Shown here: positions 528-62,366 of the stretch, piece after piece
Numbering within the stretch: position 1 is the stretch's first letter
How the letters are laid out: the number at the start of each line of letters is the position of its first letter
Source: Dehalococcoidia bacterium
GTDB lineage: Bacteria; Chloroflexota; Dehalococcoidia; Lucifugimonadales; UBA3495
Length of the DNA stretch: 64,000 bases
Assembly (NCBI GenBank): GCA_963664625.1
Contig: OY761541.1
Coordinates: forward strand, 1,410,204 to 1,474,203
Direction of reading: 5' to 3'
Program-made: the position numbers and the translations under genes
The notes under the pieces: model-generated
Told to the model about the DNA's origin: nothing
Seen by the model: the letters and a program-made list of their open reading frames with translations, nothing else
The model's database searches: none

Positions 528-558
528 GTCATTCCCGCGAAGGCGGGAATCCATAAGC
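528..558 (+). repeat. REP-A copy (consensus GTCATTCCCGCGAAGGCGGGAATCCA)
   Basis: gtcattcccgcgaaggcgggaatccataagc, with palindromic core TTCCCGC-GAAG-GCGGGAA. Lies between convergent genes. Confidence 0.9.
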
Positions 559-1239
559 TTCGGATCGGTCGGCAGATTCTGCGCTGGCGCCGCGGGCGGC
601 TGGCACCCAACCGGAAACCGCCGCTCGTCCCAAGTCCACTTGGTGACCATTCAGCGACCGGCGGGCGACAAAAGCCGTATTGACCAGTTGATAGACCTGC
701 AACTTAGACTTGTCGCTGTGGTACGGAAACGCAAACAGCCAGTTGCGGCCTTGAAAGACAACCGACCCCGTATCCTTCACGAAATAGTACCGCCCCACCA
801 GCACTGCGCCAGCGATGACCGCCAACAACAGGATAAGCGGTCCCATATCCATTCCGATGAAGGGAACCGAGGGGCCGTCGATATGTCCCGTAAGCCAATA
901 GGCAACGACCAGATAAATAACCAGCCCACCCACCACAACTACCAGCCCCTGGAGCAGGGAGCCGAACCCGCGGGCGCCTGAGCGCACCAGCACTCCCGCC
1001 AACTCCTCAACCGGCACGATGTGGGTCTGGGCCTTGCCGTCCTCTTGAGAGAAGGCCAGGATCCGCTGGTCGGTGGTGATCAACAGTTGTCCTTCCACCG
1101 GCGGCTCGTCGCTGAGACCCGCGGACGGTGAAAAGACATGGGTCACCCTCTCCCCCGGCAGAAGGGCCACGTCCCGAATGTGAGTAAGATAGCTTACGTC
1201 CTGCAAGTCCCCGTCCAACGCGCGTCCTCCGGATACCAT
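529..1239 (-). CDS. hypothetical membrane protein (soluble N-terminal domain plus 2-3 TM helices)
   Basis: 236-aa ORF with hydrophobic segments LLQGLVVVVGGLVIYLVVAYWL and GPLILLLAVIAGAVLVG. No family motif recognised. The last ~10 codons are read from the REP-A copy, so the 3' end is uncertain. Confidence 0.5.
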   Translation of the reverse strand: MVSGGRALDGDLQDVSYLTHIRDVALLPGERVTHVFSPSAGLSDEPPVEGQLLITTDQRILAFSQEDGKAQTHIVPVEELAGVLVRSGARGFGSLLQGLVVVVGGLVIYLVVAYWLTGHIDGPSVPFIGMDMGPLILLLAVIAGAVLVGRYYFVKDTGSVVFQGRNWLFAFPYHSDKSKLQVYQLVNTAFVARRSLNGHQVDLGRAAVSGWVPAARGASAESADRSEAYGFPPSRE

Positions 1240-2246
1240 ACTACCATAAGGGGTAGGTAGTTGCTGTTACGGCAGTTAGCCGCTAATTCACAATCGGGGA
1301 TGTCGTTATATGCAACTGTCATTTGTTGCTTGACTTTGGCATCGTAACTAAGGTACAGAAGGGTCAGTTTCAGATAGGATACGGCGTGCAATGACAACAC
1401 CGAAGGTAACTGCTGAAAAGTCGGGCAATGGGGAGTCTACGTTCATTCACAATATGGGGCTTCCGGTGCATGGATGGTACAGATTTCCGGCTGGCTTCTC
1501 GGCTGAATGGGCCCAGCAGGTTATAGAAGACCACCGTGGCGTAATCGGAGAGTTAGCCGTTTTAGACCCCTTTGCCGGCGTTGGCACGACCGTCCTGGCC
1601 GGTGAGAGTGCTGGTGTTCCTGCTTGCGGAGTCGAAGCTCAGCCGTTCATCCAAAGAATCGCCGCAGCCAAACTGCTTTGGCACAGTAACATCGCAGAAT
1701 TCCACGAAATGGCTCAAGCCGTGGCCGATCTAGCTAAGAGTAAATGCAGACAGTTGCCACCTTATCCAAAGCTTATTCATGGATGCTTTACCGAGGAGTC
1801 GTTGAATGATCTAAACGCCCTTCGTTGCGCTTGGGAAGAACTTAATGACGGTAGTCCCGGAGCAACTCTTAGCTGGTTAGCCTTGGTTGGCATCCTGCGT
1901 GCATGTTCCTCCGCTGGGACCGCTCCTTGGCAGTATGTCCTGCCTTCCAAGACGAAAAACAAAGTTTTGCCTCCATACGATGCGTTCGACTTACAGGTAA
2001 GACGGATGCTGGCTGATATGAACTACTGGCAAATGCTGGAAGCTAGACGGGACGCGAATATCTCTCGCGACGATGCGCGTCTACTTGAAACTGTACAGGC
2101 AGACTCTGTTGGGCTGGTAGTTACTTCTCCACCATACGCCAACAACTACGACTATGGCGATGCGACAAGGTTGGAAATGACATTCTTTGGGGAAGTATCC
2201 GGCTGGGGGGATGTACACTGAGATGGACCCCATTGGTTGGACAGGA

Positions 2247-3164
2247 TTAGGCCGTAATCAAGTGGGGTTCCTGCATCCCGTCGTATGATACCAAGACCGG
2301 TTGGTCCGAACACCTCCTCTCTTTGGTCTCCTTAGACTCTCCGCAGAAAACCTCCGCCGGCGTCCGGTAGCACAAGGCTTGGTGCGGCCTGCGGTTGTTG
2401 TAGAACCGGAAGTATTCTCCCAGTTCCCGGCGGGCCTCACTGGCGTTGCCGTAGGCTTTCAGGTATACCTCTTCGTACTTCACCGTCCGCCATAGCCGCT
2501 CCACGAAGATGTTGTCAGCGTAGCGCCCCTTCCCGTCCATGCTGATCTTCACCCCGCTGTCCTCCAGCACCTGGGTGAACTCGCGGCTGGTGAACTGGCT
2601 GCCCTGGTCCGTGTTGAACACCTCCGGCCTCCCCCGGCCCAACGCTTCAGTCAGCGCCTCGGCACAGAAACCGACCTCCAAAGTATTGGACAACCGCCAA
2701 GCCAGCACGTACCGGCTGTGCCAGTCCATGACCGCCACGAGGTACAGGAATCCCCGGGCCATGGGCAAGTAGGTGATATCTGCCGCCCACACCTGGTTGG
2801 GCCGGGTGATACTGGCACCCCGCAGGAGGTAGGGATAGACTCGTTGCTCCGGCGCCGGCCGACTGGTGCGAGGTTGTCGGTAGATGGCCCGCAGCCCCAT
2901 GACCCGCATCAGCCGCTGCACCCGCTTTCTACTTACCGGCTTGCCCCGCCTCTCCAGACAGGCTTTCATCCGCCTGGACCCGTAAAAGGGCGTCTCCAGG
3001 TACTGGCGGTCCAGTTCCATCATCAGGGACAGGTCCTGCTGTGAGGTCCCCTTGGGACGGTAGTAGAGGCTGGAGCGGCTGACGCCCAGCAACTGACACT
3101 GCCGCACTATGGACAGGTGTCGATGTCGCCGGTCCACCAACTCACGTCGCTGTGCAAGGCTCAT
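2247..3164 (-). CDS. IS3-family transposase OrfB (DDE integrase core)
   Basis: 305 aa; [10 protein letters not shown]...[15 protein letters not shown]...[10 protein letters not shown]...[13 protein letters not shown] is an rve/DDE core. The frame is also open upstream of the ATG, so an OrfAB fusion is possible. Confidence 0.9.
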
Positions 3165-3463
3165 GGACCGGACCTTTCCTCCAAGAAATCCCGCTCCACC
3201 TTGAGCTGGCCGATCTGCTGGTACAACCGGGCCACCAGAGCGTCGTTGTTCTTGCTCTTCTGACCCTTGTCTTTACTGGTCCCGTTGCCCTGGTCAAAGA
3301 TGGCGGACGCCCCATCGACCAGAGCCTTCTTCCATGTCTGAATCTGGTTGGGGTGAACCTCGAACCGGGCAGCCAGTTCGGCCACCGTCTGCTCGCCCTT
3401 CATTGCCTCCAGTGCAACTTTGGCCTTGAAGGCCGGGCTGTGCTTTCTTCTCTCTCTGGACAT
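3161..3463 (-). CDS. IS3-family transposase OrfA (HTH)
   Basis: 100 aa; [46 protein letters not shown] is typical of IS3 OrfA. Its stop overlaps the orfB ATG (ATGA). Confidence 0.85.
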
Positions 3464-4006
3464 TTCCCGCTCCTCCTCGACAGCTGTCGCTGCCCTCAGT
3501 TTAGAAGCAGGACTCCCACTTAGCTACCTGTCCAGTTTCTTGGGTCCACCTCACACGAAAAAGCGAGAAAGCATCTTATTAGGTCTTGCTCACAACACGC
3601 TTCCAGAGAAAAGCTCGACCTTAATCAACTCCTGAACGAACTTCGGGGAACCAACTTCGAGGGCGAAATATCATTGGTCTGTGAGGCACTAGGGGAAGAA
3701 CGACTTAATCACGGTGGGAAAAAAGACTACCACCTTATGGTTGCGGCTTACTTTGCGGACATGCGAAAGACATGGACAGCTCTTCGCCGGGTTTGTGCCG
3801 ACGGGAGTAAGGCCTGCTTTGTAGTGGGAGATTCGGCTCCCTACGGGGTACATGTACCAACTGATAGGTGGCTAGGCGAATTGGCTTTAGACGCCGGGTT
3901 TGAGTCGTACAGCTTCCAAAAGGTTAGAGACCGCAACACCAAATGGAAGAACCGCAAGCACCGTGTTCCCTTGAAAGAAGGGTTTCTGTGGGTACAAGGA
4001 TAGCTG

Positions 4007-4918: not shown

Positions 4919-4961
4919 CAGACCTGCTTCCGTAATGATACGTTTCCCCCGTTAAAGACTG

Positions 4962-5227
4962 TGATGGAGACGAGTAGGCAAGGGTAGGCGGTTAGCGAGC
5001 CTGGTACAGTGCAAGCAGGTGCGCCGATCTTGACCGAAAATCCCTCCGGAGTCGCCAGCTGAACCCCTCCCTCCTGTGGAGGGAATGTAAGCCGGGCCGG
5101 GGTCGCCGCCCGTTACAAGCGGCGGGGCATGTTAGTGTCCTTATTGAGTGGTCCCGGCTGTGCCGGGGCAATTAGGGTGGTACCGCGGGTATACAAAGCC
5201 CCGTCCCTAGAGGCCGGGGCTTTTTTA
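4962..5227 (+). promoter_or_regulatory. T-box riboswitch leader upstream of ilvB
   Basis: Stem I elements are present: K-turn-like UGAUGGAG, AGUA S-turn, AG-bulge UUAGCGA and distal loop GGUACAGUGCAAG. Stem III is cccggcugugccgggg. The canonical T-box sequence AAUUAGGGUGGUACCGCGG lies at 5170-5188, followed by an intrinsic terminator. Confidence 0.8.
5197..5227 (+). terminator. T-box terminator hairpin plus U-run
   Basis: agccccg (5197-5203) pairs with cggggct (5215-5221) and is followed by tttttt. It competes with the T-box antiterminator. Confidence 0.75.
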
Positions 5228-15862: not shown

Positions 15863-17212
15863 ATGGACAAGCAACCCACCGTAGCCATAAGGACCCACGG
15901 CTGCAAACTGAACCAAGCCGACAGCGACCTGCTGGCCCGGCAGTTCATGGAATCCGGCTACCGCATCGTATCTTCCACCGCCGAAGCCGACGTTTTCATC
16001 CTGAACACCTGTACCGTCACCGCCAACGCTGACGCCAAGGCCCGCCAAGCCCTGCGCGCAGCCAAGAAAGCCAACCCTCAAGCGGTGGTGGTAGCCACTG
16101 GCTGCTACGCCCAGTGGTCAGCCCAGCAGTTGGAGAAAATCGAGGGCGTGTCGCTCGTGGTGGGCAACACCGGCAAGGAACAACTGCCGTCGATGGTCAC
16201 TGGCTTGCTTGAGCAAGGGCAACCGACTGACGCAACTATCTTGCCAGACACCGCGCCGGTGCGTCATTCCCGCGAAAGCGGGAATCCACAACCCGCACCC
16301 AGTCCGGTCAATCTCCCCTTCGCCGCCGGGCGACACCGGGCCATGGTCAAGATACAAGAGGGCTGCAACCAAGTCTGCGCCTACTGCATCGTGCCCAAAG
16401 TCCGGGGCCGTGAGCGCAGCATCCCTCCCGAGACGCTGGTGTCCCAGATTAACCAGCGCGTGGAAGAGGGCTTCCGGGAAGTGGTGCTGACCGGAACCCA
16501 ACTGGGGACTTACGGCTTCGACCTTCCTGATATAACCCTCACCCGGCTACTGGAACGCATTCTCGCCGGGACTGGCGTCGACAGGCTGCGGGTATCATCC
16601 CTTCAAGCCCATGAGATAGACCCGCCCTTGCTGGAGTTGTGGCAGGACCCGCGCATGTGCCCCCACTTTCACATTCCATTGCAGAGCGGTAGCGACACCG
16701 TGCTGGAACGTATGCGGCGCCGTTACACCACCGGCCGGTTCGCCGACAACGTTGCATTGGTCAGGGAATTCGTCCCGGGCTGCGCGGTGACCACCGACGT
16801 CATCGTAGGGTTTCCCGGAGAAGGCCCCAACGAATACGCTGAAAGCCTCTCCTTTGCCCAAGCAATGGAATTTGCGGACATGCACATCTTTCCCTACTCC
16901 TCACGGCCGGGCACCACCGCGGCCCACTTCGTTGACGACCTGCCGCCGTGGGAGAAGAAGGACAGGGTTGGCCGAATGATGGAAGTTGCCGAGCGTGGCT
17001 TCCGGGCCTTTCGCACCCGCCAGTTGGGGCGTACCCGCCCGGTACTCTGGGAATCGAAGCGCGTGGATGACGGCGGGATAACCTGGCAGGGCCTGACTGA
17101 CAACTACATCCGCGTTTACGGAAAGACGGACCGGGACTTGAGCAACTCCATTTCGATGGCTCAGCTTACGGAACTGGACCGGCGGGAGGTCGCCGTTCAA
17201 CCTCTTTTGTAG
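15863..17212 (+). CDS. mtaB: tRNA t6A37 methylthiotransferase MtaB (radical SAM)
   Basis: VAIRTHGCKLNQADS, ILNTCTVT and QEGCNQVCAYCIVPKVRG are methylthiotransferase/radical-SAM motifs. An alternative upstream ATG at 15791 is possible. Contains an in-frame REP-A copy. Confidence 0.8.
   Translation: MDKQPTVAIRTHGCKLNQADSDLLARQFMESGYRIVSSTAEADVFILNTCTVTANADAKARQALRAAKKANPQAVVVATGCYAQWSAQQLEKIEGVSLVVGNTGKEQLPSMVTGLLEQGQPTDATILPDTAPVRHSRESGNPQPAPSPVNLPFAAGRHRAMVKIQEGCNQVCAYCIVPKVRGRERSIPPETLVSQINQRVEEGFREVVLTGTQLGTYGFDLPDITLTRLLERILAGTGVDRLRVSSLQAHEIDPPLLELWQDPRMCPHFHIPLQSGSDTVLERMRRRYTTGRFADNVALVREFVPGCAVTTDVIVGFPGEGPNEYAESLSFAQAMEFADMHIFPYSSRPGTTAAHFVDDLPPWEKKDRVGRMMEVAERGFRAFRTRQLGRTRPVLWESKRVDDGGITWQGLTDNYIRVYGKTDRDLSNSISMAQLTELDRREVAVQPLL
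16263..16290 (+). repeat. REP-A copy inside the mtaB coding sequence
   Basis: gtcattcccgcgaaagcgggaatccaca is read in frame as (R)HSRESGNPQ, in the linker between the N-terminal and radical-SAM domains. Confidence 0.9.
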
Positions 17213-18107: not shown

Positions 18108-18157
18108 ATGCTGTTTTCGTCATTCCGGCCCGAGGCCGGAAATACGGTGGGCGGTTG

Positions 18158-19256: not shown

Positions 19257-19310
19257 GTTATTCCCGCGCTGGGCCTGCCCTCGCCACCGCGAGGGCGGGA
19301 ATCCATAAGC
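19257..19310 (+). repeat. REP-A copy, expanded-loop variant
   Basis: gttattcccgcg...(extra 20 nt)...gagggcgggaatccataagc. Confidence 0.7.
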
Positions 19311-23565: not shown

Positions 23566-23596
23566 GTCATTCCCGCGAAGGCGGGAATCCATACGC
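23566..23596 (+). repeat. REP-A copy (plus half-copy at 23540-23550)
   Basis: gtcattcccgcgaaggcgggaatccatacgc lies between convergent genes. Confidence 0.9.
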
Positions 23597-26923: not shown

Positions 26924-26950
26924 GTCATTCCCGCGCAGGCGAGAATCCAG
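26924..26950 (+). repeat. REP-A copy (first of a tandem pair)
   Basis: gtcattcccgcgcaggcgagaatccag. Confidence 0.85.
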
Positions 26951-26966: not shown

Positions 26967-26992
26967 GTCATTCCCGCGTAGGCGGGAATTCA
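26967..26992 (+). repeat. REP-A copy (second of a tandem pair)
   Basis: gtcattcccgcgtaggcgggaattca. Confidence 0.85.
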
Positions 26993-27971: not shown

Positions 27972-28621
27972 CGCCGGTATTCTTCGTAGCGTTCGAGTCG
28001 AGAATCATTTGGTTGGCCCGTCCCTGCTCCGGTCATACTGGGTCCGTCCACGGCCTTCCCCGCACTTTCGACCCGTCGCCGGCCGGGTCCCATGAAGACC
28101 CAAGCCAGCAACACCAGCCCAACCACGATCGAGGAGTCGGCCAGGTTGAATATCGGCCAAGCCCCCACGTCCAGGAAGTCGGTGACGTGGCCGAACAGCA
28201 ACCGGTCGGTCAGGTTGCCCACCGCGCCGCCTATTTGCAGGCCCAGGCTCAACCGCAGCAGGTTGGAGGGAGGGCGCTGGCTGCGGTAAATCAACCCCAG
28301 GATGAAGATGCCCACAAACGCCACCACGATCAGCGGGGTGTTCTGCCCTTGGAACAGGCCGAAAGCGCTGCCGGTGTTGTAGGTGTGGGTTATCCTGAAA
28401 AACCCTTCCGCGGGGACGGACTGGCTGAGTTGCAGGTATTCCCGCACCAGGAACTTGGTGGCTTGGTCGCACAATACGACCAAGGCAGCCAGTTGGATAA
28501 GGGCCAGGTCCTTAAAGATAAACGAAGGCCCCTCCCCTTTCCCGTCTTTCCCGCGAAGGCGGGAAACCCGCCAGGGCCAGGCGCGGGGCGGGGCGGGACC
28601 TTCAGCTTCAGATTCCATCAA
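27950..28621 (-). CDS. lspA: lipoprotein signal peptidase II (start uncertain)
   Basis: DQATKFLV, NTGSAFG and FNLADS are LspA motifs. The only ATG gives a ~35-aa N-terminal extension that is partly read from a degenerate REP-A copy. Confidence 0.8.
   Translation of the reverse strand: MMESEAEGPAPPRAWPWRVSRLRGKDGKGEGPSFIFKDLALIQLAALVVLCDQATKFLVREYLQLSQSVPAEGFFRITHTYNTGSAFGLFQGQNTPLIVVAFVGIFILGLIYRSQRPPSNLLRLSLGLQIGGAVGNLTDRLLFGHVTDFLDVGAWPIFNLADSSIVVGLVLLAWVFMGPGRRRVESAGKAVDGPSMTGAGTGQPNDSRLERYEEYRRWMRLDR
28543..28567 (+). repeat. REP-A copy, degenerate
   Basis: gtctttcccgcgaaggcgggaaaccc lies inside the annotated 5' end of lspA. Confidence 0.6.
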
Positions 28622-40695: not shown

Positions 40696-40722
40696 GTCAT
40701 TCCCGCCTGCGCGGGAATCCCC
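40696..40722 (+). repeat. REP-A copy (first of a pair)
   Basis: gtcattcccgcctgcgcgggaatcccc. Confidence 0.8.
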
Positions 40723-40756: not shown

Positions 40757-40783
40757 GTCATTCCCGCGCAGGCGGGAATCCAC
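40757..40783 (+). repeat. REP-A copy (second of a pair)
   Basis: gtcattcccgcgcaggcgggaatccac. Confidence 0.9.
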
Positions 40784-40875: not shown

Positions 40876-41460
40876 ATGACTGACCTCAAACTGGACGCCA
40901 AGTCGACCGCTTTGTTGATCGCGGATTTCTACACCGAGATGATGAACATCCTGCCCCACGCCACCGAACGCGCGGTCGTGGAAAAGACCGCCGCTCTGCA
41001 ACGGGCGTCGCGCGAGGCCGGGGTGTTGCTGTGCTATTGCGCCACCGTCTTTCGACCGGGCTACGTGGAAATAGGCGAACGCAACAAGACCTTCAACCAG
41101 CGCAAGGCGTCGGGCCAGCCGGCGGTGTTCGACCCGGTGGCCCTTATCCACCCGTCGGTGAGTCCCACCGAAGGCGAGGTGGTGGTTGGGAAACATCGGG
41201 TCAACGCCCTGTACGGGACAGGGTTGGACGTGGTGCTCCGGGCTAACGACATCGAGGACCTGGTAATTCTTGGGTACGCCACCAGCGGCGTGGTGCTGTC
41301 AACGGTGCGGTATGCGTCGGACTTGGACTACAACCTGTACGTGGTCGAAGACTGCTGCTCCGACTCCGACCCTGAGGTCCACGAATTCCTGACGGAGCGC
41401 ATCTTCCCCCGCCAAGCGGAAGTGGTGCAATCGGAAGACGTCATCTGGTCTTTGAGCTAA
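40876..41460 (+). CDS. isochorismatase-family cysteine hydrolase
   Basis: LVILGYATSGVVLSTVRYASDLDYNLYVVEDCCSD carries the catalytic Cys region. Confidence 0.75.
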   Translation: MTDLKLDAKSTALLIADFYTEMMNILPHATERAVVEKTAALQRASREAGVLLCYCATVFRPGYVEIGERNKTFNQRKASGQPAVFDPVALIHPSVSPTEGEVVVGKHRVNALYGTGLDVVLRANDIEDLVILGYATSGVVLSTVRYASDLDYNLYVVEDCCSDSDPEVHEFLTERIFPRQAEVVQSEDVIWSLS

Positions 41461-41661
41461 CGATGGCCGACGGACCTTCAATCCAGGGGCCGGGCAGCGA
41501 CACACCACCTCCATGCCAAGCCGAGGGAAATCGCAAGAGACCGTTCCCGCGGGTCCGGACGCGGACCATCGCCCTGTGGGCATTGGCTATCGCCATTGGA
41601 CACGTCATATATCACGCCCTGAGGGACCACGTGTTCCCTGACGCTTATTAACGGAGGCTGG

Positions 41662-42144
41662 ATGGACCTGCCGGCGCATCGTTTCCTGGACGAAAGTGAC
41701 ATTCCATATCAGCGGCTGTCCTTCCCATCCGACACCGAGAAGGGGGCCGCCAACGTGGCCTATGCCCTGGGCTATAGCGAAGCCCAGATGGTGAAAACGC
41801 TCATCTTCGTGACTGGAGCGGGGGAACACGCCCTGGTAATGCTGGGCGGCGACAAGTCGGCCATTTCCGGACGGTTGAAAAAAGCACTGGGGTCCCGGAA
41901 CATCAAGCTGGCTGCCCCGGCCATCGTCAAGGAGGTCACCGGCTACGAGATCGGTTCCATCCCGCCCTTCCACTGGCAGCCGCCCGGATTCCGCTCCATA
42001 CTTGACGCTTGTTTGATGGACGAAGAGGTCCTGGGGGTGGGCGCCGGCGTTTGGGGAGAAGAAATAATGATCACTCCGGAAGACCTGGTGGCGGCCGTCG
42101 GCGCGGAGGTGGTCGACCTTTCGGGCAAGGGCTTCCCGTCGTAA
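41662..42144 (+). CDS. YbaK/EbsC-type aminoacyl-tRNA deacylase
   Basis: MVKTLIF...VTGYEIGSIPPFHW is the YbaK editing-domain pattern. Confidence 0.7.
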   Translation: MDLPAHRFLDESDIPYQRLSFPSDTEKGAANVAYALGYSEAQMVKTLIFVTGAGEHALVMLGGDKSAISGRLKKALGSRNIKLAAPAIVKEVTGYEIGSIPPFHWQPPGFRSILDACLMDEEVLGVGAGVWGEEIMITPEDLVAAVGAEVVDLSGKGFPS

Positions 42145-42198
42145 CCCAATTGGACAGTCAATTCTTCAATATCCGGGAGTAGTCACCGAGGTTGCAAG

Positions 42199-42435
42199 AT
42201 GAGAACAGTCATATCAATTCCGGATTCAGTAGTTGAAGCGGCCGATTCCCTAGCAAAGAATCAGGGAATTTCAAGAAGCGAATTCTTCAGACGAGCGATC
42301 GAAACTTACATAGCTTCTTGCCAGCCGTCAAACGTCCAAGCGACCCTTGACGCCATTTATAGTCAAGAAGAGTCCAAGGTAGATGATTTACTCGCTGGGC
42401 TGCAATGGGCATCGTTGCCCAAGGAAGATTGGTAA
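42199..42435 (+). CDS. ribbon-helix-helix (CopG/MazE-like) antitoxin
   Basis: ISIPDSVVEAADSLAKNQGISRSEFFRRAIETYI is an RHH motif. Its stop overlaps the mazF ATG (TAATG). Confidence 0.75.
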   Translation: MRTVISIPDSVVEAADSLAKNQGISRSEFFRRAIETYIASCQPSNVQATLDAIYSQEESKVDDLLAGLQWASLPKEDW

Positions 42436-42773
42436 TGCATCGTGGTGAGGTATGGTGGGCGGCACTTCCGGAACCACTAGGTTCCGGTCCGGGTTTTAGA
42501 AGGCCGGTCGTCATAGGCCAGATTGATCAATTCAACGCCAGCCGCATCAACACAGTTATTGTTATTGCCGTTACGTCAAATTTGAGGCTCGCTAATGCTC
42601 CAGGCAACGTGTTTCTGGATGGCGCAAGTTGTGGGTTGCCAAAGGATTCTGTGCTTAATGTTTCTCAGGTTTTAACCATCGACAAGTCATCCTTGACTGA
42701 ACGGATCGGAAGATTACCCAACCATACAATCGACGCAATGGATACAGGACTGCGGTTAGTCTTGGGCCTGTAA
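42435..42773 (+). CDS. mazF: MazF/PemK-family endoribonuclease toxin
   Basis: RGEVWWAALPEPLGSGPGFRRPVVIGQ...VIVIAVTSN...DSVLNVSQVLTIDK is the PemK pattern. Confidence 0.8.
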   Translation: MHRGEVWWAALPEPLGSGPGFRRPVVIGQIDQFNASRINTVIVIAVTSNLRLANAPGNVFLDGASCGLPKDSVLNVSQVLTIDKSSLTERIGRLPNHTIDAMDTGLRLVLGL

Positions 42774-42833
42774 TGGTCCCCAAGTGAATGTCTGTGATGA
42801 TAATGATGGACAGGTAACTTAGTCGATGTCTTT

Positions 42834-44171
42834 CTAGTCCTTCTTCCCCCACCACTTCTTCAACCGTTCCCCAATCTCTTTCTCTGCGCCCTCCTGACCG
42901 GGGTGGTAGTAGCGGCGGTCCTTGAGCTGTGGAGGCAGGAACTCCTGGTCGACGAAGTGGCCTTCGTAGTCGTGGGAGTATTTGTAGTCCCTCCCGTAGC
43001 CCATCTGCCGCATCAGCCCGGTGACGGCGTTGCGCAGATGCAGCGGTACCGGCTCGTTGGGCATCCGTCTCACATCCTCCAAAGCCTGTTCCAAGGCCAT
43101 GTAGGCCGTGTTGCTCTTAGGGGCCGAGGCCAAGTACACCGTCGCCTCTGCCAGCGGAATACGGCCCTCGGGCATCCCCAGGAAGTGGACCGCCTGCTGG
43201 GCGGCCATAGCCACCGGCAAAGCTTGCGGCTCGGCAAGGCCGATGTCCTCGGCGGCCAGCACCACCAAACGTCTGGCGATGAAAAGCGGGTCTTCCCCGG
43301 ACTCGATCATCCGCGCCAGCCAGTACAGGGCGCCGTCGGGAGAAGAACCCCTCACCGACTTGATGAAGGCGGAGATGGTGTCGTAGTGGCCCTCCCCAGC
43401 CTTGTCGTACATGGGAGACCGGCGTTGCAGAGCTTCGGCGATGGTCTCCAAGTCTACCCGACGCATTCCGTCCTCACCGGGAGCGGTGGCGAAGGCGGCG
43501 GTCTCCAGGGCGTTGAGCGCGATCCGGGCGTCACCGTTGGAGATGTTCACCAGGTGGGCTATGGCATCCTCCTGGAGCATGGCGCCCATTTCACCCAGTC
43601 CGCGGTCGGTGTCCGCGATGGCCCGTTTCACGATGGTTTCCACTTGGTCGGGCGTCAGGCTTTGCAGGGCAAACACCCGGCTCCGCGACAACAAGGGCGC
43701 GATTACTTCAAAAGAGGGGTTCTCGGTAGTCGCGCCGATGAAGGTGATGGAGCCGTTCTCGACGTGGGGGAGAATAACGTCCTGCTGGGCCTTGTTGAAC
43801 CGGTGAATCTCGTCGACGAACAGGATGGTAGCCTGACCTTGCATTCCCTTCAGGTCCCGGGCCTCGACGACGATACGGCGCAGGTCAGCCACGCCGGACG
43901 TAACGGCACTCAATGACTGAAAAGCGGCTTTGGTGACCGTTGCCACCAGCCTAGCCAGCGTGGTCTTGCCCGTGCCCGGCGGCCCCCAGAGGATGAAGGA
44001 GGGAACACGGCCAGCGGCGATTGCCCTAGTCAGGACTCGACCGGGCCCTACAATCTGGTCCTGGCCCACAAACTCTTCGAAACTGCGGGGCCGCATACGC
44101 TCAGCCAGCGGCGCATCCCGTTCCATTTGGACCCGTTCCTGGCGTTCAAACAGCGATTCTGACGAAGCCAT
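42834..44171 (-). CDS. rarA: replication-associated recombination protein A
   Basis: RMRPRSFEEFVGQDQIVG, GPPGTGKTTLA and the C-terminal MgsA domain YDTISAFIKSVRGSSPDGALYWLARM. Confidence 0.9.
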   Translation of the reverse strand: MASSESLFERQERVQMERDAPLAERMRPRSFEEFVGQDQIVGPGRVLTRAIAAGRVPSFILWGPPGTGKTTLARLVATVTKAAFQSLSAVTSGVADLRRIVVEARDLKGMQGQATILFVDEIHRFNKAQQDVILPHVENGSITFIGATTENPSFEVIAPLLSRSRVFALQSLTPDQVETIVKRAIADTDRGLGEMGAMLQEDAIAHLVNISNGDARIALNALETAAFATAPGEDGMRRVDLETIAEALQRRSPMYDKAGEGHYDTISAFIKSVRGSSPDGALYWLARMIESGEDPLFIARRLVVLAAEDIGLAEPQALPVAMAAQQAVHFLGMPEGRIPLAEATVYLASAPKSNTAYMALEQALEDVRRMPNEPVPLHLRNAVTGLMRQMGYGRDYKYSHDYEGHFVDQEFLPPQLKDRRYYHPGQEGAEKEIGERLKKWWGKKD

Positions 44172-44188
44172 AGAAGCGTCCCCCTCCC

Positions 44189-44214
44189 GTTATTCCCGCC
44201 TTTGCGGGAATCCC
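44189..44214 (+). repeat. REP-A copy
   Basis: gttattcccgcctttgcgggaatccc. Confidence 0.75.
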
Positions 44215-44248
44215 GCCGGGGGCAAGCCCGACCGGCGCATGTTCAAAA

Positions 44249-45262
44249 TCATTCCTGGAATGGGGGCATGACCTCCGCGGCGAACAACCGCATGGAGTTG
44301 CTCACCTCTTCGTTGGTCAACATGCCGCCGGTGTTGAACCAACAGATGAAAGTGTCGGGATCGTACATCTCCTTGAACCGGTGCAGCTTGTCCGCTACTT
44401 GTTCCGGTGTGCCCACGGCAGCGAACTCGTCCAGCACTGTTTCATAGTCCAGGGACGTCGCCCGAGAAGAACCTCGGGAACCTCCCATGTCCCGCAGGGT
44501 GCCGAGGTAGTTGTTGATGGTTTTCTCGAACCCGCGGCGGGCTTCCTGCTCCGAATCGGCAACGTTGACGTGAACGGTCACGTTGACGTTGAGCTTGTCT
44601 TCATCGTGACCGTGGTCTGCAAGGTTCCGCCGGTACGACGCCAAGCCGTCCACCGCGCCTTGGGCGGTAACGATGGTCGGCGCAACCAGGATGTTGTGGC
44701 CCAGTTGGCCTACTATGTCAAAGGTGTCGGCGCTGTTGGCCGCGATGTAAACCGGAGGATGGGGTTGCTGGACAGGCCGGGGGGCGATGTCTATATCGTT
44801 CACTTGATAGTAACGCCCCCGGTGGGAATACTTCTTCTCGGTCCACATGCCCAGGACCATTTCCAAGCTTTCCAGGAACCGGTCCCTGGCCTCTTCGTGG
44901 TCTACACCGTAGCCTTGGAAATGGGCGGGGATCGCGCCGCGTCCGATGCCGAAAATCGACCGGCCATTCGACATTACGTCCAGCGTGGCGGCTTCTTCCG
45001 CCAACCGGATGGGCTGGTGCAACGCCACCAGATGCACGGCAGTGCCGATCTTGATTTGCTCCGTGGTCTGGGCGACGGCAGCCGCCACCATCAAGGGCGC
45101 GGGCATCACCGAAAAACGCGCGTTGAAGTGCAACTCGGCCAGCCACATTGAGTCAAACCCCAATTGGTCAGCCAACTGGCATTGGGATATGGTATCCCGG
45201 TAGCGGGCGGCAGGCTCTTGGTCAACCGCACACGGCATCTGGTAGAACACGCCGAATTTCAT
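44249..45262 (-). CDS. LLM-class (luciferase-like) flavin-dependent oxidoreductase
   Basis: MKFGVFYQMP...LGFDSMWLAELHFN is a typical LLM N-terminus. Confidence 0.8.
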   Translation of the reverse strand: MKFGVFYQMPCAVDQEPAARYRDTISQCQLADQLGFDSMWLAELHFNARFSVMPAPLMVAAAVAQTTEQIKIGTAVHLVALHQPIRLAEEAATLDVMSNGRSIFGIGRGAIPAHFQGYGVDHEEARDRFLESLEMVLGMWTEKKYSHRGRYYQVNDIDIAPRPVQQPHPPVYIAANSADTFDIVGQLGHNILVAPTIVTAQGAVDGLASYRRNLADHGHDEDKLNVNVTVHVNVADSEQEARRGFEKTINNYLGTLRDMGGSRGSSRATSLDYETVLDEFAAVGTPEQVADKLHRFKEMYDPDTFICWFNTGGMLTNEEVSNSMRLFAAEVMPPFQE

Positions 45263-45339
45263 GTGTGGCCTCTTAACAAAACGGTTTCTGCCCTGATTCT
45301 ACACCACTTTGCCAGCCGGCACCGAGTATAAGTGATAAT

Positions 45340-45846
45340 ATGAACCAAACCAATTGGCGGGAAAGCAAGAGGATGGAGTCTTCCATTTCGGGATCGGAAA
45401 AATACGCAGAACTGAGCTGCCAGTACATCGAAAGGGCCGATGAGTATTTGCAGGCGGGGGACCGGGTACAGGCATCGGAGAAGGGCTGGGGCGCAGTGGC
45501 AGAGGCCGTCAAATCCATAGCCGAGAATAGGGGATGGAACCACAATAGCCAACGGCTGCTGAACGACATAGCGTTTCAGCTATCGGAAGAGTGGGGCCGT
45601 CCTGACGTGCGAACACTGTTCAATGCAGCAAAAGACTTGCACATCAACTTTTATGAAGACAATCGGGGACTGGACGACATTGCGGCCAGCGTCGGCGATG
45701 CCAAGACACTGCTAAGGGAACTGGAAATCCTGCGCCAACAACCACCCCAACCGGTAGCTCTCGACAGCAGGGAGCGGCGACTACGCTGGCGGCGGCTAAC
45801 GGGCGAGTTGCTGCCGTTGGGGTCCGAGCCGGACACAGCGGAATGA
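45340..45846 (+). CDS. PaREP1-family (HEPN-like) protein
   Basis: YIERADEYLQAGDRVQASEKGWGAVAEAVKSIAENRGW...AKDLHINFYED closely follows the PaREP1 pattern recalled from archaeal proteins. Confidence 0.6.
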   Translation: MNQTNWRESKRMESSISGSEKYAELSCQYIERADEYLQAGDRVQASEKGWGAVAEAVKSIAENRGWNHNSQRLLNDIAFQLSEEWGRPDVRTLFNAAKDLHINFYEDNRGLDDIAASVGDAKTLLRELEILRQQPPQPVALDSRERRLRWRRLTGELLPLGSEPDTAE

Positions 45847-45856
45847 AGGCAAGAAT

Positions 45857-45890
45857 GCGGGGGCAGTAACGAATATCCGCCCCCGTTTCG
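45857..45890 (+). terminator. candidate intrinsic terminator
   Basis: cggggg (45858-45863) pairs with cccccg (45880-45885), then tttcgttc. Confidence 0.35.
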
Positions 45891-45913
45891 TTCTACGGAG
45901 AGAGGGCTTTCCC

Positions 45914-47478
45914 TTACAGGGGGATGTTGCCGTGCTTTTTGGCGGGAAGGTTGTCCCGCTTGTTCTGCAGCATCTCCAAGGCCCGCACCACGCGAGAGCG
46001 GGTGTCGGCGGGATCGATAACGTCGTCGACGAACCCCCGGCTGGCGGCGATGTAGGGGTTGGTGAACTTTTCCTGGTATTCGACTACCAGTTCCCGCCTG
46101 GTCTTGTCCGGGTCGTCGGCAGCCGCAATCTCACCACGATAGATGATGTTGACTGCGCCCTCGGCCCCCATAACCGCTATCTCAGCCGATGGCCATACAA
46201 AGTTGACGTCGGCCCGCAGGTGCTTGCTGCTCATGACAATGTAGGCGCCGCCGTAAGCCTTGCGGGTGATGATGCTTATCTTGGGAACAGTGGCCTCGGC
46301 GTAGGCATATATCAGCTTGGCCCCGTGGCGGATGATGCCACCGTACTCCTGGTCCACGCCGGGCATGAACCCCGGAACGTCCACCAAGGTGACCAAGGGA
46401 ATGTTGAAGCAGTCGCAGAACCGGACAAAGCGGGCCGCCTTGGTGGAGGCGTCTATATCCAGCACACCCGCCAGGTAGTCGGGTTGGTTGCCAACGATTC
46501 CCGCCGTCCTGCCGTTAAAGCGGCCAACCCTACTACTATATTGGGAGCGAAGCTTTCGTGGACTTCCATGAACTCTTCGTCATCAACAATACGGTAGATG
46601 ATGTCCCGCATATCGTAGGGACGGTTGGCATCATCGGGCACCAAGTAACGCAACTCGGCGTCAGTGCGGCTCGGCGGGTCGTTGGTGGGCATCGGTGGGG
46701 GGTCGTCCAAGTTGTTGCCCGGCAGGAACCGCAACAGACGGCGAACCTCGGATATGCACTCCTGCTCGGTGCAATATACGAACTGGGCCACTCCGCTGCG
46801 GGAGGCGTGGGACTCAGCGCCGCCCAGTTCCTCGTGGGTAACGTCTTCTCCGGTAACGGCCTTGATCACGTCCGGGCCGGTGATGTACATCTGGCCGGTG
46901 CCGCTGACCATGAATATGAAGTCGGTGATGGCCGGAGAGTAGACCGCGCCGCCGGCGGCCGGCCCGACGATAACCGAGATCTGCGGGATAACCCCGGAGA
47001 ACAGGGTGTTCCGCAGGAATATGTCCCCGTAGGCAGCCAAGCTGGAGGAACCTTCCTGGATCCTTGCGCCGCCGGAATCGTTCAGCCCCACCACGGGGCA
47101 TCCGGTCTTGGCGGCCAAGTCCATCATTTTGCAGATTTTGGCGCTCACCGCTTCGGACAGGGAGCCGCCCAATACGGTGAAGTCCTGGGCATAGGCAAAC
47201 ACCTGCCGGCCATTGACGCGGCCGTAGCCGGTGACCACCGCGTCCCCCAGGAACTTGCGGTCGGCAAGGCCGAAATCGGTTGCCCGGTGGGTCACAAAAG
47301 TGTCCAGCTCTTCGTAAGCGCCGTCGTCCATCAACAAGGCAAGCCGCTCCCGAGCAGTCAGCTTGCCCCGATTGTGCTGCTGATCGATGCGGGCCTCGCC
47401 GCCACCCTTACGCGCTTCGGCGCGCATCTGTTGCAGGGTGTCCAGCTTTACGTCGATGGAACGTCTTTCTACCGCCAA
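45914..47478 (-). pseudogene. acyl-CoA (propionyl/methylmalonyl) carboxyltransferase beta subunit, frameshifted
   Basis: The N-terminal ORF 46453-47478 and C-terminal ORF 45914-46465 are colinear with PccB-type enzymes. The frames meet at ...NIVVG / (F/L)(G/A)[26 protein letters not shown], which implies a 1-nt loss near 46521-46530. A sequencing error cannot be excluded. Confidence 0.7.
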
Positions 47479-47608
47479 AGCACCTCTCGCGGTCTATAAC
47501 CGGCGCGGAATCACGCATCATCCTAGCAGACCACTATAGGCGGCGCAAGGAGAACGGCGGAGGGGCTCACTGTTCCGTTTGTTGGTCTGTACAGCGGCGC
47601 CGGTGCGG

Positions 47609-47634
47609 TGGATTCCCGCCTTCGCGGGAATGAC
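47609..47634 (-). repeat. REP-A copy (reverse orientation)
   Basis: tggattcccgccttcgcgggaatgac. Confidence 0.9.
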
Positions 47635-47670
47635 GGATCGGCGCGCCCGTTCCTTGGTCGAGCCGGACTT

Positions 47671-47696
47671 GCTTCCCCGCCTTCGCGGGGAAGACG
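47671..47696 (-). repeat. REP-A copy, degenerate (reverse orientation)
   Basis: gcttccccgccttcgcggggaagacg. Confidence 0.6.
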
Positions 47697-48310: not shown

Positions 48311-48316
48311 GATGAT

Positions 48317-57630: not shown

Positions 57631-57656
57631 TAGATTCCCGCCTTCGCGGGAATGAC
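57631..57656 (-). repeat. REP-A copy (reverse orientation)
   Basis: tagattcccgccttcgcgggaatgac. Confidence 0.9.
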
Positions 57657-59297: not shown

Positions 59298-59453
59298 TAT
59301 TTACATCTCCAATCGGGGTAGAATTTCTTGGTTGCGGTGGAGTCGTTCAACGCAGAGGGCGCGAAGGCCGCGCAAAGAGCGCAAAGTATTCCTCTTGTTT
59401 CAGGCTGGCGATATTTTAACACCCTGCCTGAAATTCCACACATGGGGCTGGAC

Positions 59454-59479
59454 GGATTCCCGCGAAGGCGGGAATGACC
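59454..59479 (-). repeat. REP-A copy (reverse orientation by flanks)
   Basis: ggattcccgcgaaggcgggaatgacc. Confidence 0.85.
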
Positions 59480-59507
59480 GGTTGGGGCAGGATGCCGTTG
59501 TAATGAC

Positions 59508-60038
59508 TCAGATTAGGTTCTGGAGTTGAACAAGAGGATTGTTCCTCTCGTCAACAACTCGTTGGAAAAGAGGATGAGAAAGAGCTTGTTTGGGCTGTTT
59601 GTGAGTTGTCATGCCTTTTGGTGGTGTTGGGCGTGGTTCCCACACCAGCAGGGCGACGTATTTGATGGATACATTGGGGATGTAGCCGTGGTAACAGCAA
59701 AGTGATATCAACCAATCGCAGAACAATTTGCCGTTGGCGATTTGCCTCTTATAGTCCCCCTTGTTGGAGGTTTTCTGTTCTATCACGAACATATACACCT
59801 GATTCTTGTGAATGAAGGCAATCATGGCATCACACATCTTAGCGATGTGTTCCGGGGGGCTGTTGCCCATGAAAGCGAATGGCGGATTGTTTTGATTGTC
59901 CAAAGAAAACGCTATCGTATTACTGTTCGGAGCGCGGAGCCGGACGTTATTCGGGAGGCACCAATCACGCTGTTGTCTGGGGAGGTAGTACTGGCTGTCG
60001 ATAACCCTTTTGAGTGTGTCGATCACCTTATTGGCCAT
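59508..60038 (-). CDS. 176-aa partner protein with possible PD-(D/E)xK core
   Basis: MCDAMIAFIHKNQVYMFVIEQKTSNKGDYK gives a D ... E-x-K arrangement with appropriate spacing. Its start overlaps the ATPase stop by 11 nt. No family recognised. Confidence 0.5.
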   Translation of the reverse strand: MANKVIDTLKRVIDSQYYLPRQQRDWCLPNNVRLRAPNSNTIAFSLDNQNNPPFAFMGNSPPEHIAKMCDAMIAFIHKNQVYMFVIEQKTSNKGDYKRQIANGKLFCDWLISLCCYHGYIPNVSIKYVALLVWEPRPTPPKGMTTHKQPKQALSHPLFQRVVDERNNPLVQLQNLI

Positions 60039-61182
60039 CTTGGCGCTCCTGGATGCCGTAGTAGATGTCGTCGTTAATGGCGTTTATCTGCTCGATCACG
60101 TTATCGAACGTATTAGCGCGTATGCCGTCATCGGCGGTGATTTCAGAGGGTTCTATGGTGTGGTCTTTGAACACGTATGCCCCAACCAGTTCTGGGTCGA
60201 GGATTTCATCGTCGTGATAGCGGTACTTCCTTCGGAAACGGGCAGCGTCAGGATGATTAAGCATAATGAGGGAGTTGAACTCGCGCACGATATAATCGCT
60301 ATGGGTGCTAATAACGACACGAACGCCCGCGTTCACCAACCGAGCCAACAATTTGGCTATTGTGCGCTGGCTTGAGGGATGGAGATTCAGTTCAGGTTCG
60401 TCAATCATGAGGATGTTGCCAGGGATAGCCTGATTTTCGAGATAGAACCAAAGTGCGAACAGGCTTTTGACGGCGCTGGAAGTAGCGTGCAGAGGAATGC
60501 GTCGTGTGCTGCGAGTACGCTCCCTAGTGCGATATGGCCTGAACTGGATGCTGTCGGTCTGGGGGTCTATGCCGTATACGCCGCCGGCCAGATAGCGTTT
60601 TACGCGTTCTGCAAGTGAATGGAATGCCGGTCGGCCTGCGGCCTCAATCTCGGGTAAGCGGTTTAACCAGTCGATGTAATCCGCGATTGGTTCCGCGTAG
60701 CGTGAGTACACGACGTCGCGCAAAAGGTCTTCAAGGTCAACACCCTCCCGGGAAGCTCGGTGTAGCAAGCCTGTTCGCCGCCTGCTCAGTTCACGGTAAA
60801 AAAGATGCAATCCGTTTCGCTCGGCAGGCATGAGAAAGACGTCAGCGAACTCTCCTGCATTTATTAGCCGCTCAAAGTCGTGCTCGTGGGAAAGGGTAAA
60901 CTGGGCTTCGCCCAGACCCAGTGATGAGACATTGAAGGTAAGGGGGAGGTAAGAGGTGGTGAAATCGCGCCGGGAATCCGGGTGGTCTTCGGGGTCATCT
61001 TGCAGTGCTAGTGCAATTTCGGGCAACAGCTTGTAGAAAGTGTAAAGGGAATAGATCGTCCACGTTTTTCCCGTGTTGTTTTCACCGTAGAAGACGGTGA
61101 GGGGTTTGTGCATGAATTGACCATATTGCACGCTGCCGAGATTTTTGACTTCGAATGTCAGTGACTCTGATTGCTTACCCAT
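60028..61182 (-). CDS. ABC/SMC-type AAA_15/21-like ATPase
   Basis: Walker A YGENNTGKT, signature-like LHATSSAVKSL, Walker B ILMIDEPELNLHP and H-loop VISTHSDY. Confidence 0.75.
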   Translation of the reverse strand: MGKQSESLTFEVKNLGSVQYGQFMHKPLTVFYGENNTGKTWTIYSLYTFYKLLPEIALALQDDPEDHPDSRRDFTTSYLPLTFNVSSLGLGEAQFTLSHEHDFERLINAGEFADVFLMPAERNGLHLFYRELSRRRTGLLHRASREGVDLEDLLRDVVYSRYAEPIADYIDWLNRLPEIEAAGRPAFHSLAERVKRYLAGGVYGIDPQTDSIQFRPYRTRERTRSTRRIPLHATSSAVKSLFALWFYLENQAIPGNILMIDEPELNLHPSSQRTIAKLLARLVNAGVRVVISTHSDYIVREFNSLIMLNHPDAARFRRKYRYHDDEILDPELVGAYVFKDHTIEPSEITADDGIRANTFDNVIEQINAINDDIYYGIQERQDGQ

Positions 61183-61404
61183 CTTGCTGTCCCCTTGAAA
61201 GTTGCGGGGTGTAATAGATGATCATCCCCATGCGCCACTGATTCAAATGGACCGAACGGACTGCCAGCTCAATGGTATGGGTGCGCAGCGCATTATACCG
61301 CTCCGAACCGACACTGGGCTTCTATCGGCAGAGGTGAACATAGGTCAATTGCTGACGTCAACGGTGGTCCCACGCCCAGCGGTACAGGGAACATCAGGGC
61401 AATG

Positions 61405-61432
61405 AAAAAGCCGCTCCCGCGTGCGGAGCGGC
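61405..61432 (-). terminator. intrinsic terminator of the LRR gene
   Basis: On the minus strand, gccgctcc-gcacgcg-ggagcggc is followed by ttttt, about 27 nt after the stop. Confidence 0.6.
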
Positions 61433-61458
61433 TACGTGCGAGGGGAAAGACGCGGGCG

Positions 61459-61968
61459 CTACTTCGCCGGTTTACCCCCGTCTGCACGAGGGCAGGCTCT
61501 GCACGGGCTGGTCAGGTTGCCCAACTGGGTCGGAATGGCCCCAGTCAACTGGTTGTCGTAGAGGCTCAGCCGTTCCAGGCTGGTAAGGCTGCCCAACTCC
61601 AGCGGTATAGTCCCGGTCAACTGGTTCCTGTCGAGGTTCAGCCATGTCAGGTTGGTAAGGCTGCCCAACTGGGCCGGTATGGCCCCGGTCAACTGGTTCT
61701 GGTGGAGGCTCAGTGCGACAACACGCCCGTCGGAGTTCGTGGAGACTCCGTACCACTCTCCTATTGACGCATTACTGTTCCAATTAGTGTTGTTTTTCCA
61801 GTTTGGGCCGTCCGTGGCGTTGTAGAGCGCGACGAGGATATCGCGGTCGGTCGGCGTGCCGGTCTGCGCCAGGGCCGGATGGACCAGCCCCGGTCCCGTC
61901 ACGCTCGCAAGCGTCATGGCGGCAACGGCCAGCACTGCAATGAGCATCCTTCCAAGTCTCTTGTTCAT
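61459..61968 (-). CDS. secreted plant-type leucine-rich-repeat protein
   Basis: Signal peptide MNKRLGRMLIAVLAVAAMTLASV...ALAQ, an LRRNT-like cap (DRDILVALYNATDGPNWKNNTNW...WYGV), then 24-residue LxLxxNQLTGxIPxxLGxLxxL repeats. Confidence 0.75.
   Translation of the reverse strand: MNKRLGRMLIAVLAVAAMTLASVTGPGLVHPALAQTGTPTDRDILVALYNATDGPNWKNNTNWNSNASIGEWYGVSTNSDGRVVALSLHQNQLTGAIPAQLGSLTNLTWLNLDRNQLTGTIPLELGSLTSLERLSLYDNQLTGAIPTQLGNLTSPCRACPRADGGKPAK
61510..61725 (-). repeat. 3 x 72-bp tandem repeats (the LRR units)
   Basis: ggt(c/a)agg(t/c)tgcccaact...gtcaactggtt... recurs three times. Confidence 0.8.
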
Positions 61969-62060
61969 GCTTCTATCCTTTGACCTCCAGCTTCACCGGC
62001 ATACCGCGGGAGTCCACCACCGGGTGCGGCTTGCTGTTCAGCCCCCTTTTGTGCGGGCGA

Positions 62061-62086
62061 TGGATTCCCGTTTCCACGGGAATGAC
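62061..62086 (-). repeat. REP-A copy (reverse orientation, variant loop)
   Basis: tggattcccgtttccacgggaatgac. Confidence 0.75.
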
Positions 62087-62341
62087 GCCTGCGCCCGTGA
62101 AGACGGATGGAGCATTTTTCGGCAGGCTTGGCTTGCGTCGTGGTACCGAGCTGAAACGCGATTGCCTTGGGCAGGCGTCATGTTGGTAGAATTATATCGT
62201 TGCTTATTAGGTAGGATTATACCATTTCTAATGACGATATGTTGATGACTTTATGAAAATACAGGTTACTTTATAACGATGCTAACAAAGACACTGGCGG
62301 CTGCCCCTTCCGCCATTGCCGTGAAAACTTGTCCCCGGCGC

Positions 62342-62366
62342 GGTTTCCCGCCTTCGCGGGAATGAC
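62342..62366 (-). repeat. REP-A copy (reverse orientation)
   Basis: ggtttcccgccttcgcgggaatgac. Confidence 0.85.

Follow-up and report, generated by a model that had tools for sequence, protein, structure and literature searches.

REP copies and their orientation

The 64-kb stretch of DNA analysed here (the window: positions 1,410,204 to 1,474,203 of contig OY761541.1 from a Dehalococcoidia bacterium; coordinates below are positions within the window) carries 17 copies of a short hairpin repeat, a repetitive extragenic palindromic (REP) element, whose orientation is perfectly sorted along the sequence: the 11 copies at 528 to 44189 all read forward, the six at 47609 to 62341 all reverse. The element is laid out as a 5' CGTC tag, an 8-bp stem (ATTCCCGC/GCGGGAAT), a 4-nt loop and a 3' CCA tail, and its CGTC-tagged strand, written out, is 5'-CGTCATTCCCGCGAAGGCGGGAATCCA-3'. 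Judged by its sequence, it is a CGTC-1 type REP, a family (Di Nocera, De Gregorio & Rocco 2013, PMC3733652) that takes in Neisseria dRS3 and Rickettsia RPE-6. In the window, the 26-mer GTCATTCCCGCGAAGGCGGGAATCCA has 10 matches at three or fewer mismatches against 0.00 expected from shuffles, and the palindromic core TTCCCGC-N4-GCGGGAA has 15 matches at two or fewer mismatches against 0.71 expected. The CGTC tag is exact in 12 of the 15 copies that were aligned to a profile (the variants are CGTT at 44189, AGTC at 40757 and GGTC at 59453), and the two copies outside that alignment have CGTC (18119) and CGTT (19257). The stem with its 4-nt loop is present in 15 of 17 copies, the exceptions being 18119 (5-nt loop) and 19257 (loop replaced), while the 3' tail is exactly TCCA in 8/17, most of the others differing by one base. 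The predicted DNA fold of the element has an energy of -8.9 kcal/mol (z = -4.2).

A first-pass annotation of the window had listed 16 copies with perfectly sorted orientations, and reading each site with its flanks bears out all 16. Twelve of its coordinates stand as given; the other four were off by one base and are now 28544, 47670, 59453 and 62341. The copy at 18119, also forward, was found with a looser pattern and is an addition to that list. A profile built from the copies found no additional ones in the window, and every copy scores highest in its assigned orientation. The stem, being a perfect palindrome, gives no orientation; this has to come from the tails or the loop, and we defined it by the tails (5' CGTCA, 3' TCCA). 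The perfect sorting holds under this definition, whereas a call based on the loop gives a mixed pattern, the loops of 40696, 44189 and 59453 being inverted relative to their tails. The sorted pattern is thus real but belongs to the tails, and the loop does not maintain polarity. The inverted loops (e.g. CTGC beside a neighbor with GCAG) resemble hairpin-loop inversion within a perfect palindrome. The same annotation had put the chance of perfect sorting at 32/65536 for 16 random orientations, or 26/8192 with each of three tandem pairs taken as one event, and its arithmetic is right. If the boundary is taken independently from GC skew, 14 independent sites would all match it by chance with a probability of about 2 x 2^-14 = 1.2e-4.

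The forward copies begin at 528..553 with the consensus CGTCA-ATTCCCGC-GAAG-GCGGGAAT-CCA between convergent open reading frames (ORFs). The second, at 16263..16288 (loop GAAA), lies in frame within a MiaB/MtaB-like radical-SAM gene (15791-17212, + strand), between its UPF0004 (aa 31-125) and Radical_SAM (aa 187-355) domains, where the translation reads ...APVRHSRESGNPQPAP... The copy at 18119..18145 has the stem variant TTCCGGC, a 5-nt loop and a degenerate tail. At 19257..19305 both tails are intact (CGTTA ... TCCA) and a second palindrome, rich in G+C (CCTGCCCTCGC-CACC-GCGAGGGCGGG), stands where the loop would be; this copy may have arisen by nested insertion or by the fusing of two hairpin repeats. 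A consensus copy at 23566..23591 stands between convergent genes, and a head-to-tail pair, 26924..26949 and 26967..26992, stands between tandem minus-strand genes for a glutamyl/glutaminyl-tRNA synthetase (GluRS/GlnRS-type) and a pseudouridine synthase. The copy at 28544..28569 has the tails CGTCT and ACCC. A second head-to-tail pair is formed by 40696..40721, with forward tails and the inverted loop CTGC, and 40757..40782, with the loop GCAG. The last forward copy, 44189..44214 (CGTTA ... TCCC, loop inverted), is between rarA and an LLM oxidoreductase gene.

The first reverse copy, 47609..47634, is again consensus and forms the third head-to-tail pair with 47670..47695, a copy with the stem variant TCCCCGC and degenerate tails. 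It is followed by 57631..57656, between tandem minus-strand genes, by 59453..59478, whose tails are reverse and whose loop is GAAG on the + strand (inverted relative to the tails), by 62061..62086, in which the stem variant TTCCCGT is compensated by ACGGGAA, and by 62341..62366, with the tail ACCG. Copies 28544, 44189 and 62341 have common extended flanks, CCCCTCCC ahead of the CGTC tag and CCGCC/GGGG past the stem, which suggests from sequence likeness that they form a longer subfamily.

The copies in the window are singlets and head-to-tail pairs only. There are three head-to-tail pairs and no head-to-head pair, although the head-to-head dimer is the typical, if not strictly defining, arrangement of CGTC-1 REPs, and no inverted REP pair within about 130 bp (a REPIN) occurs in the window. 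The possibility that the three pairs are copies of one composite element was ruled out, as their spacers are unrelated to each other. Orientation is also independent of the direction of local genes, as had been claimed before: between tandem minus-strand genes, copies 26924, 26967 and 44189 are forward and copies 57631, 59453, 62061 and 62341 are reverse. Others stand between convergent or divergent genes, and 16263 is inside its gene.

Strand asymmetry in the window, its relatives and other genomes

GC skew is negative from position 1 to about 42 kb and positive thereafter to 64 kb. A two-mean change-point fit in 1-kb windows breaks the sequence at 41-45 kb, the mean skew being -0.039 before and +0.036 after; the two differ by Welch t-test (p = 3.9e-6) and by permutation (0/5000 as extreme). 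Skew at third codon positions was taken on the + strand, with the plus-strand and the minus-strand ORFs of each side kept apart, and this splits the replication effect from the transcription effect. On the left, plus-strand ORFs give -0.151 and minus-strand ORFs -0.025; on the right, the values are +0.014 and +0.160. The replication-type component is therefore -0.088 to the left of the switch and +0.087 to its right, and the coding-strand component about -0.07 on each side. Since the replication component changes sign while the coding-strand component stays, the switch is independent of gene direction; for the window, this is the overlay of GC skew and gene strand that had been proposed as a check. 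Within its resolution, the skew break coincides with the REP flip (between 44214 and 47609), and together they delimit a strand-asymmetry switch interval of 41000..47608. The window thus crosses a replichore-type boundary at about 41-47.6 kb, where skew and REP orientation both flip. Tail-defined orientation is locked to compositional strand asymmetry in this Chloroflexota-like genome: the strand reading 5'-CGTCA...TCCA-3' is always the C-rich strand.

The gene rarA (replication-associated recombination protein A; 42834..44171, - strand) served as the landmark for this switch in relatives. The closest RarA homologues are 85-94% identical and come from metagenome assemblies; a match labelled 'Chloroflexi bacterium' is 81% identical. 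Five syntenic relative loci of 17-21 kb each were compared (L121, L242, L243, L244 and L245). A negative-to-positive skew switch beside rarA is found in four of the five (L121, L242 and L245, and more weakly in L244), L243 being flat. The fact that the switch lies inside a conserved gene block and is common to relatives indicates that it is old, and counts against an assembly artefact or a recent inversion. REP copies in these loci that have no orthologue in the window obey the same rule: L121 has a forward copy (2626) on its negative-skew side and a reverse copy (18169) on its positive-skew side, and L245 has a forward copy with the consensus stem (528) on its negative-skew side. L244 retains the orthologue of copy 44189 with its orientation unchanged. 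A compensated stem variant, CGTCATTCCGGC...GCCGGAATCCAG, is present in L121 and L245 at non-orthologous sites. A relative with a RarA 93% identical uses TTCCGGC...GCCGGAA in place of TTCCCGC...GCGGGAA (L121 2626, 4867 and 18169; L245 4961), and it also possesses a 'double-tag' copy flanked at either end by CGTCA (CGTCATTCCGGCGGAAGCCGGAATGACG).

Synteny with the relatives stops at about 47.5 kb, where the reverse copies start, and the genes that replace the window's genes to the right of this point in the relatives have the skew sign and the REP polarity of the window's right side. At the junction, a carboxyltransferase gene of the propionyl/methylmalonyl-CoA type (45914-47478, - strand) is divided into two overlapping ORFs of 341 and 183 aa. 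The protein is an intact 521 aa in L121, L242, L243 and L245 and is split in L244 too; the split is a frameshift, a pseudogene or a sequencing error. The adjoining 1.1-kb non-coding stretch (47479-48572) contains an element resembling a miniature inverted-repeat transposable element (MITE) at 47756-48310, with 25-nt terminal inverted repeats that are 96% complementary (GGGGAAAGGACTTAAGAGCAACAGG / CCTGTTGCTCTTAAGCCCTTTCCCC) and 505 nt apart, and is unconserved in the relatives but for about 100 bp by the carboxyltransferase start. This stretch was considered as a candidate replication origin (oriC) and rejected, as only those 100 bp are kept in the relatives and the remainder holds the MITE-like element.

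The exact 25-mer GTCATTCCCGCGAAGGCGGGAATCC occurs in at least 120 GTDB genome stretches and at least 120 metagenome stretches. We worked with 240 listed loci (L122-L241 and L246-L365), and all host, pair and skew results given here are among the matches listed. Their hosts include Bacteroidota, Planctomycetota, Chloroflexota, many Proteobacteria, Nitrospirales, Zixibacteria and Patescibacteria, with G+C contents from about 33% to 72%. The 25-mer is identical across these phyla and is found mostly in head-to-head pairs 30-110 bp apart: close pairs comprise 73 head-to-head, 5 tail-to-tail and 6 head-to-tail (73/84 head-to-head).

The pattern scan gave one stretch per genome, so local skew over 4-15 kb was used in place of chromosome position; contig start points are unstandardised, and position within a contig is therefore uninformative. 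Loci of at least 4 kb with the 25-mer in a single orientation entered the test, and viral contigs with the repeat were excluded, as these have mixed hosts and a skew that goes with transcription. As in the window, loci of uniform orientation have forward copies with negative skew and reverse copies with positive skew. For genome contigs (n=66) the association is significant by Mann-Whitney test (p = 0.013), by regression controlling for coding-strand bias (p = 0.0099) and for the replication component of third-position (GC3) skew (p = 0.014). Metagenome contigs (n=41) give p = 0.11-0.44 over all tests, not significant, with the sign unchanged. The combined set (n=107) gives p = 0.0036 by regression and p = 0.0027 for the GC3 replication component, and 8/9 Chloroflexota loci agree with the rule (one-sided p = 0.02). 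In the pooled loci, the direction of the gene upstream shows no relation to how the REP is oriented (Fisher p = 0.28). Given the noise in skew over 4-15 kb, we regard this evidence as modest support. Taken together, the window skew, the relatives and the other genomes support the earlier proposal that orientation is linked to the replication strand, with a replichore boundary or an inversion breakpoint at about 44-47.6 kb.

Several other features were noted in the window. An Rfam scan found only a T-box leader (RF00230, 102 bits; 4952-5211, + strand), which is unrelated to the REP finding and lies directly upstream of an acetolactate-synthase-type, thiamine pyrophosphate-dependent enzyme (5229-6941); there are no tRNA genes in the window. 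An IS3-type insertion sequence (2247-3463, - strand) consists of orfA (HTH_Tnp_1) and orfB (rve integrase core). Defence or toxin-antitoxin-like genes are scattered through the window at 1391-2221, 11762-13672, 32468-34361, 42405-42773, 45340-45846, 53292-54668 and 60028-61182. This set comprises DNA methylases, an AIPR protein, a DUF4276 + AAA_21 ATPase pair, a MazF-like toxin, a PaREP1-like protein and an AAA_15/21 ATPase, and several of these genes have a low third-codon-position G+C content.

Nature of the boundary and origin of the sorted pattern

The boundary may be an origin, a terminus or an old inversion breakpoint. The leading strand is usually G-rich, and under this rule a polarity that is negative and then positive is origin-like. 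Origins are commonly marked by a cumulative GC-skew minimum, a cluster of DnaA boxes and an AT-rich unwinding element, often with dnaA or dnaN near. Of these hallmarks, a GC-skew minimum is present at the boundary. An origin placed here would send out forks in the direction of groEL, in the relatives, and of the GluRS/GlnRS-type genes, in the window. A terminus would be expected to have the opposite polarity, positive to negative, with a dif-like XerC/D site; the polarity is negative to positive, and a search for dif near the switch, using a proteobacterial consensus, gave no dif-like match in 41-48 kb. The SkewDB paper has nothing on inverted skew in Chloroflexi. Were the boundary an origin, the CGTC-tagged strand would be the leading-strand template.

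The reading that we think reasonably probable combines a replichore-type boundary of origin-like polarity with strand-specific, replication-coupled insertion of REP units, the latter being the part that we infer. Both strands of the element are predicted to fold into the same hairpin with near-equal stability (-8.9 vs -8.7 kcal/mol) and the loops can be inverted, so the strand information must lie in the tails, and the tag adjoining the hairpin foot is the part read by Y1 HUH enzymes (PMC3333891). At the replication fork, single REP units, not inverted REPIN doublets, would enter one of the strands in single-stranded form. The agent would likely be a Y1 HUH transposase of the REP-associated tyrosine transposase (RAYT) type, by analogy with IS608 and ISDra2. 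With entry on one strand only, each new copy would take the orientation of its replichore. Sorting by replichore, an arrangement of singlets and head-to-tail pairs only, and independence from transcription are all expected if single units insert on one fork strand. RAYT-type strand-specific insertion, which had been listed as a separate explanation of the pattern, thus appears instead to be the most plausible cause of the replication-strand link, although no Y1 transposase was found in the window or the fetched loci.

Several points weigh against this reading. The RAYT search that had been suggested as a check found no Y1/RAYT gene among the window ORFs or in about 365 fetched loci, with the limited sensitivity of an E. 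coli RayT seed and a screen for the HUH...Y-x3-NP motif; RAYTs are usually single-copy. Against an origin, there is no dnaA or dnaN among the window ORFs, no DnaA-box cluster near the switch and no conserved non-coding stretch in the boundary region. If the boundary is an origin, a simple count makes 33/50 ORFs head-on to the fork, and the tagged strand runs counter to the rule for IS608 unless it is the complementary strand (5'-TGG...GACG-3') that is active. The last forward copy, at 44189, is 2-3 kb to the right of the best skew change point (41-42 kb), and the metagenome sample is not significant by itself. Finally, the genome-wide claim rests on one 64-kb window, relative loci of 17-21 kb and noisy skews over 4-15 kb.

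The only transposase found adjoining REPs when the fetched loci were screened for RAYTs is in an IMG/VR contig (L074 3375-4343, - strand; MNIIGLDISKDT...), next to three REP copies. From its sequence we take this ORF to be IS110-like, as a candidate label. Elements of the IS110 family target REPs (PMC3971601), and the arrangement in L074 fits this behavior.

The boundary could instead be an old inversion or rearrangement breakpoint, in which case the flipped segment would have carried its skew and its REPs from the other replichore. We consider this unlikely, though it has evidence in its favor: the missing dnaA, DnaA-box cluster and dif-like site, the end of synteny in the relatives exactly at the start of the reverse copies, and the MITE-like insertion and split gene at that junction. 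Against it, the switch is inside the syntenic block and common to genomes whose RarA is 85-94% identical, and is therefore old and stable, and the different genes on the far side in the relatives still have the skew sign and REP polarity of the window's right side. If a breakpoint is nonetheless the answer, REP orientation would be a historical mark of the replication strand, and the window would be silent on where replication starts or ends at present.

Polarity might also be kept by selection and not by insertion, either because one of the orientations does harm on a particular replication strand or because the tails act as a polar signal for replication, repair or segregation in the manner of Chi or of the FtsK-orienting polar sequences (KOPS). 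This we find less likely again. The polarity is perfect (17/17) and located in the tails, the exact 25-mer across many phyla would fit recognition by a conserved protein, and the tandem REP arrays of Pseudomonas fluorescens SBW25 are mirrored about the origin too (PMC3116915). However, head-to-head pairs, whose polarities cancel out, are the main form of the family in the other genomes listed, so a universal polar function is unlikely. One copy is inside a coding sequence, copy density is irregular, and no candidate reader protein was identified.

Coincidence within a short window, which had been offered as a third explanation, would need 14 independent sites sorted by chance with a local fluctuation of skew nearby. 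A single boundary was seen and the change point is resolved to a few kb only, but the probability is about 1e-4 once skew sets the boundary, the change in skew itself has p = 4e-6 and the sign of the association is repeated in relatives and in unrelated genomes, making this very unlikely. That orientation follows transcription, the REP being a terminator or an mRNA-stabilising hairpin linked to skew only through gene direction, is scarcely credible: REPs are mostly downstream of genes in other species (PMC3733652) and coding-strand bias does affect local skew, but copies between tandem minus-strand genes change orientation from left to right, the switch remains once the gene-strand effect is removed, and in the pooled loci orientation has no link to the upstream gene and retains its effect under control for coding-strand bias.

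REPs are among the most abundant bacterial repeats, and what is known of their spread comes only from in vitro work or from reasoning on sequences. The proposed link between REPs and the replication fork is not visible in genomes where the units are symmetric doublets. Under replication-coupled insertion, a lineage with single units perfectly sorted by replichore would provide the missing in vivo signature of this link, and would place the strand information in the tails and not in the loop or stem. More tentatively, the mobile unit of CGTC-1 in this Chloroflexota lineage may be a single hairpin that enters only one replication strand, its copies being arrows of fork direction. If so, the window would hold the first genomic footprint of replication-fork-coupled REP transposition. 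Such arrows might allow replichores, origins, termini and past inversions to be mapped from sequence in uncultured bacteria and metagenome-assembled genomes, in which an origin can otherwise only be guessed at from the skew.

Comparison with known systems

Short motifs that flip orientation at the origin or terminus are known: KOPS, Chi and the 'architecture imparting sequences'. KOPS, Chi and the like are hairpin-less 8-mers that act through protein recognition on duplex or unwound DNA. The window element has the orientation flip in common with these polar chromosomal motifs; in contrast, it is a hairpin, and a polar-signal function is not indicated by any datum.

The family itself is known, and what is new is its organisation as singlets sorted by replichore. 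The window element agrees with CGTC-1 REPs (PMC3733652) in its CGTC tag, its 8-bp stem starting AT (ATTCCCGC), its 4-nt loop and its CCA tail, as well as in its many copies, mostly intergenic, some of which are in frame within genes. The loop is the sole difference between it and the Neisseria master sequence, ATTCCCGCGCAGGCGGGAATC. Unlike the window, the family is found mainly as head-to-head dimers with negligible head-to-tail copies, and the host here is Chloroflexota-like. The description of the family (PMC3733652) does not link CGTC-1 REPs to either the leading strand or the lagging one, neither word occurring in it.

The same REP (ATTCCCGCGCAGGCGGGAATC) is treated in Neisseria as the REPIN population of a Group 2 RAYT (bioRxiv 10.1101/2021.07.10.451892), and is thereby tied to such a transposase. 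The window element resembles REPIN-RAYT systems (Nunvar 2010 PMC2817692; Bertels & Rainey 2011 PMC3116915; Ton-Hoang 2012 PMC3333891) in this family tie and in combining a hairpin with a 5' tag of the Y1 HUH type. In those systems, however, the mobile unit is a symmetric inverted doublet (a REPIN or BIME, bacterial interspersed mosaic element), whereas the units in the window are single and polar and are without a RAYT gene in the window or the fetched loci. The use of single-stranded DNA at the fork, or of the lagging-strand template, has only been proposed in the RAYT literature (PMC3333891, PMC3116915).

Elements of the IS200/IS605 family have a replication-linked orientation bias (PMC3971601, PMC6006769), and single-strand transposition coupled to the replication fork has been established in IS608 and ISDra2 (Ton-Hoang 2010, as described in PMC3333891 and PMC6006769). 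With skew as a proxy, 17/17 window copies are sorted by replication, the relatives and pooled loci agree, and such sorting by replichore is what strand-specific insertion into single-stranded fork DNA predicts. The elements differ in that those of IS200/IS605 are 0.7-2 kb long with their own transposase and those of the window are 26-nt hairpins; moreover, an origin at the boundary would set the window's tagged strand opposite to the 'top strand' rule of IS608. A survey of insertion sequence orientation remarked that REP targets 'could themselves be biased' (PMC3971601).

The tandem REP arrays of P. fluorescens SBW25 (PMC3116915) are forward on one side of the chromosome and reverse on the other, roughly symmetric about the origin. 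They differ from the dispersed copies in the window in being a few large tandem arrays of the GTAG type that are partly copies of one another, and no skew analysis was reported with them. These mirrored arrays are the nearest precedent that we found for the pattern in the window.

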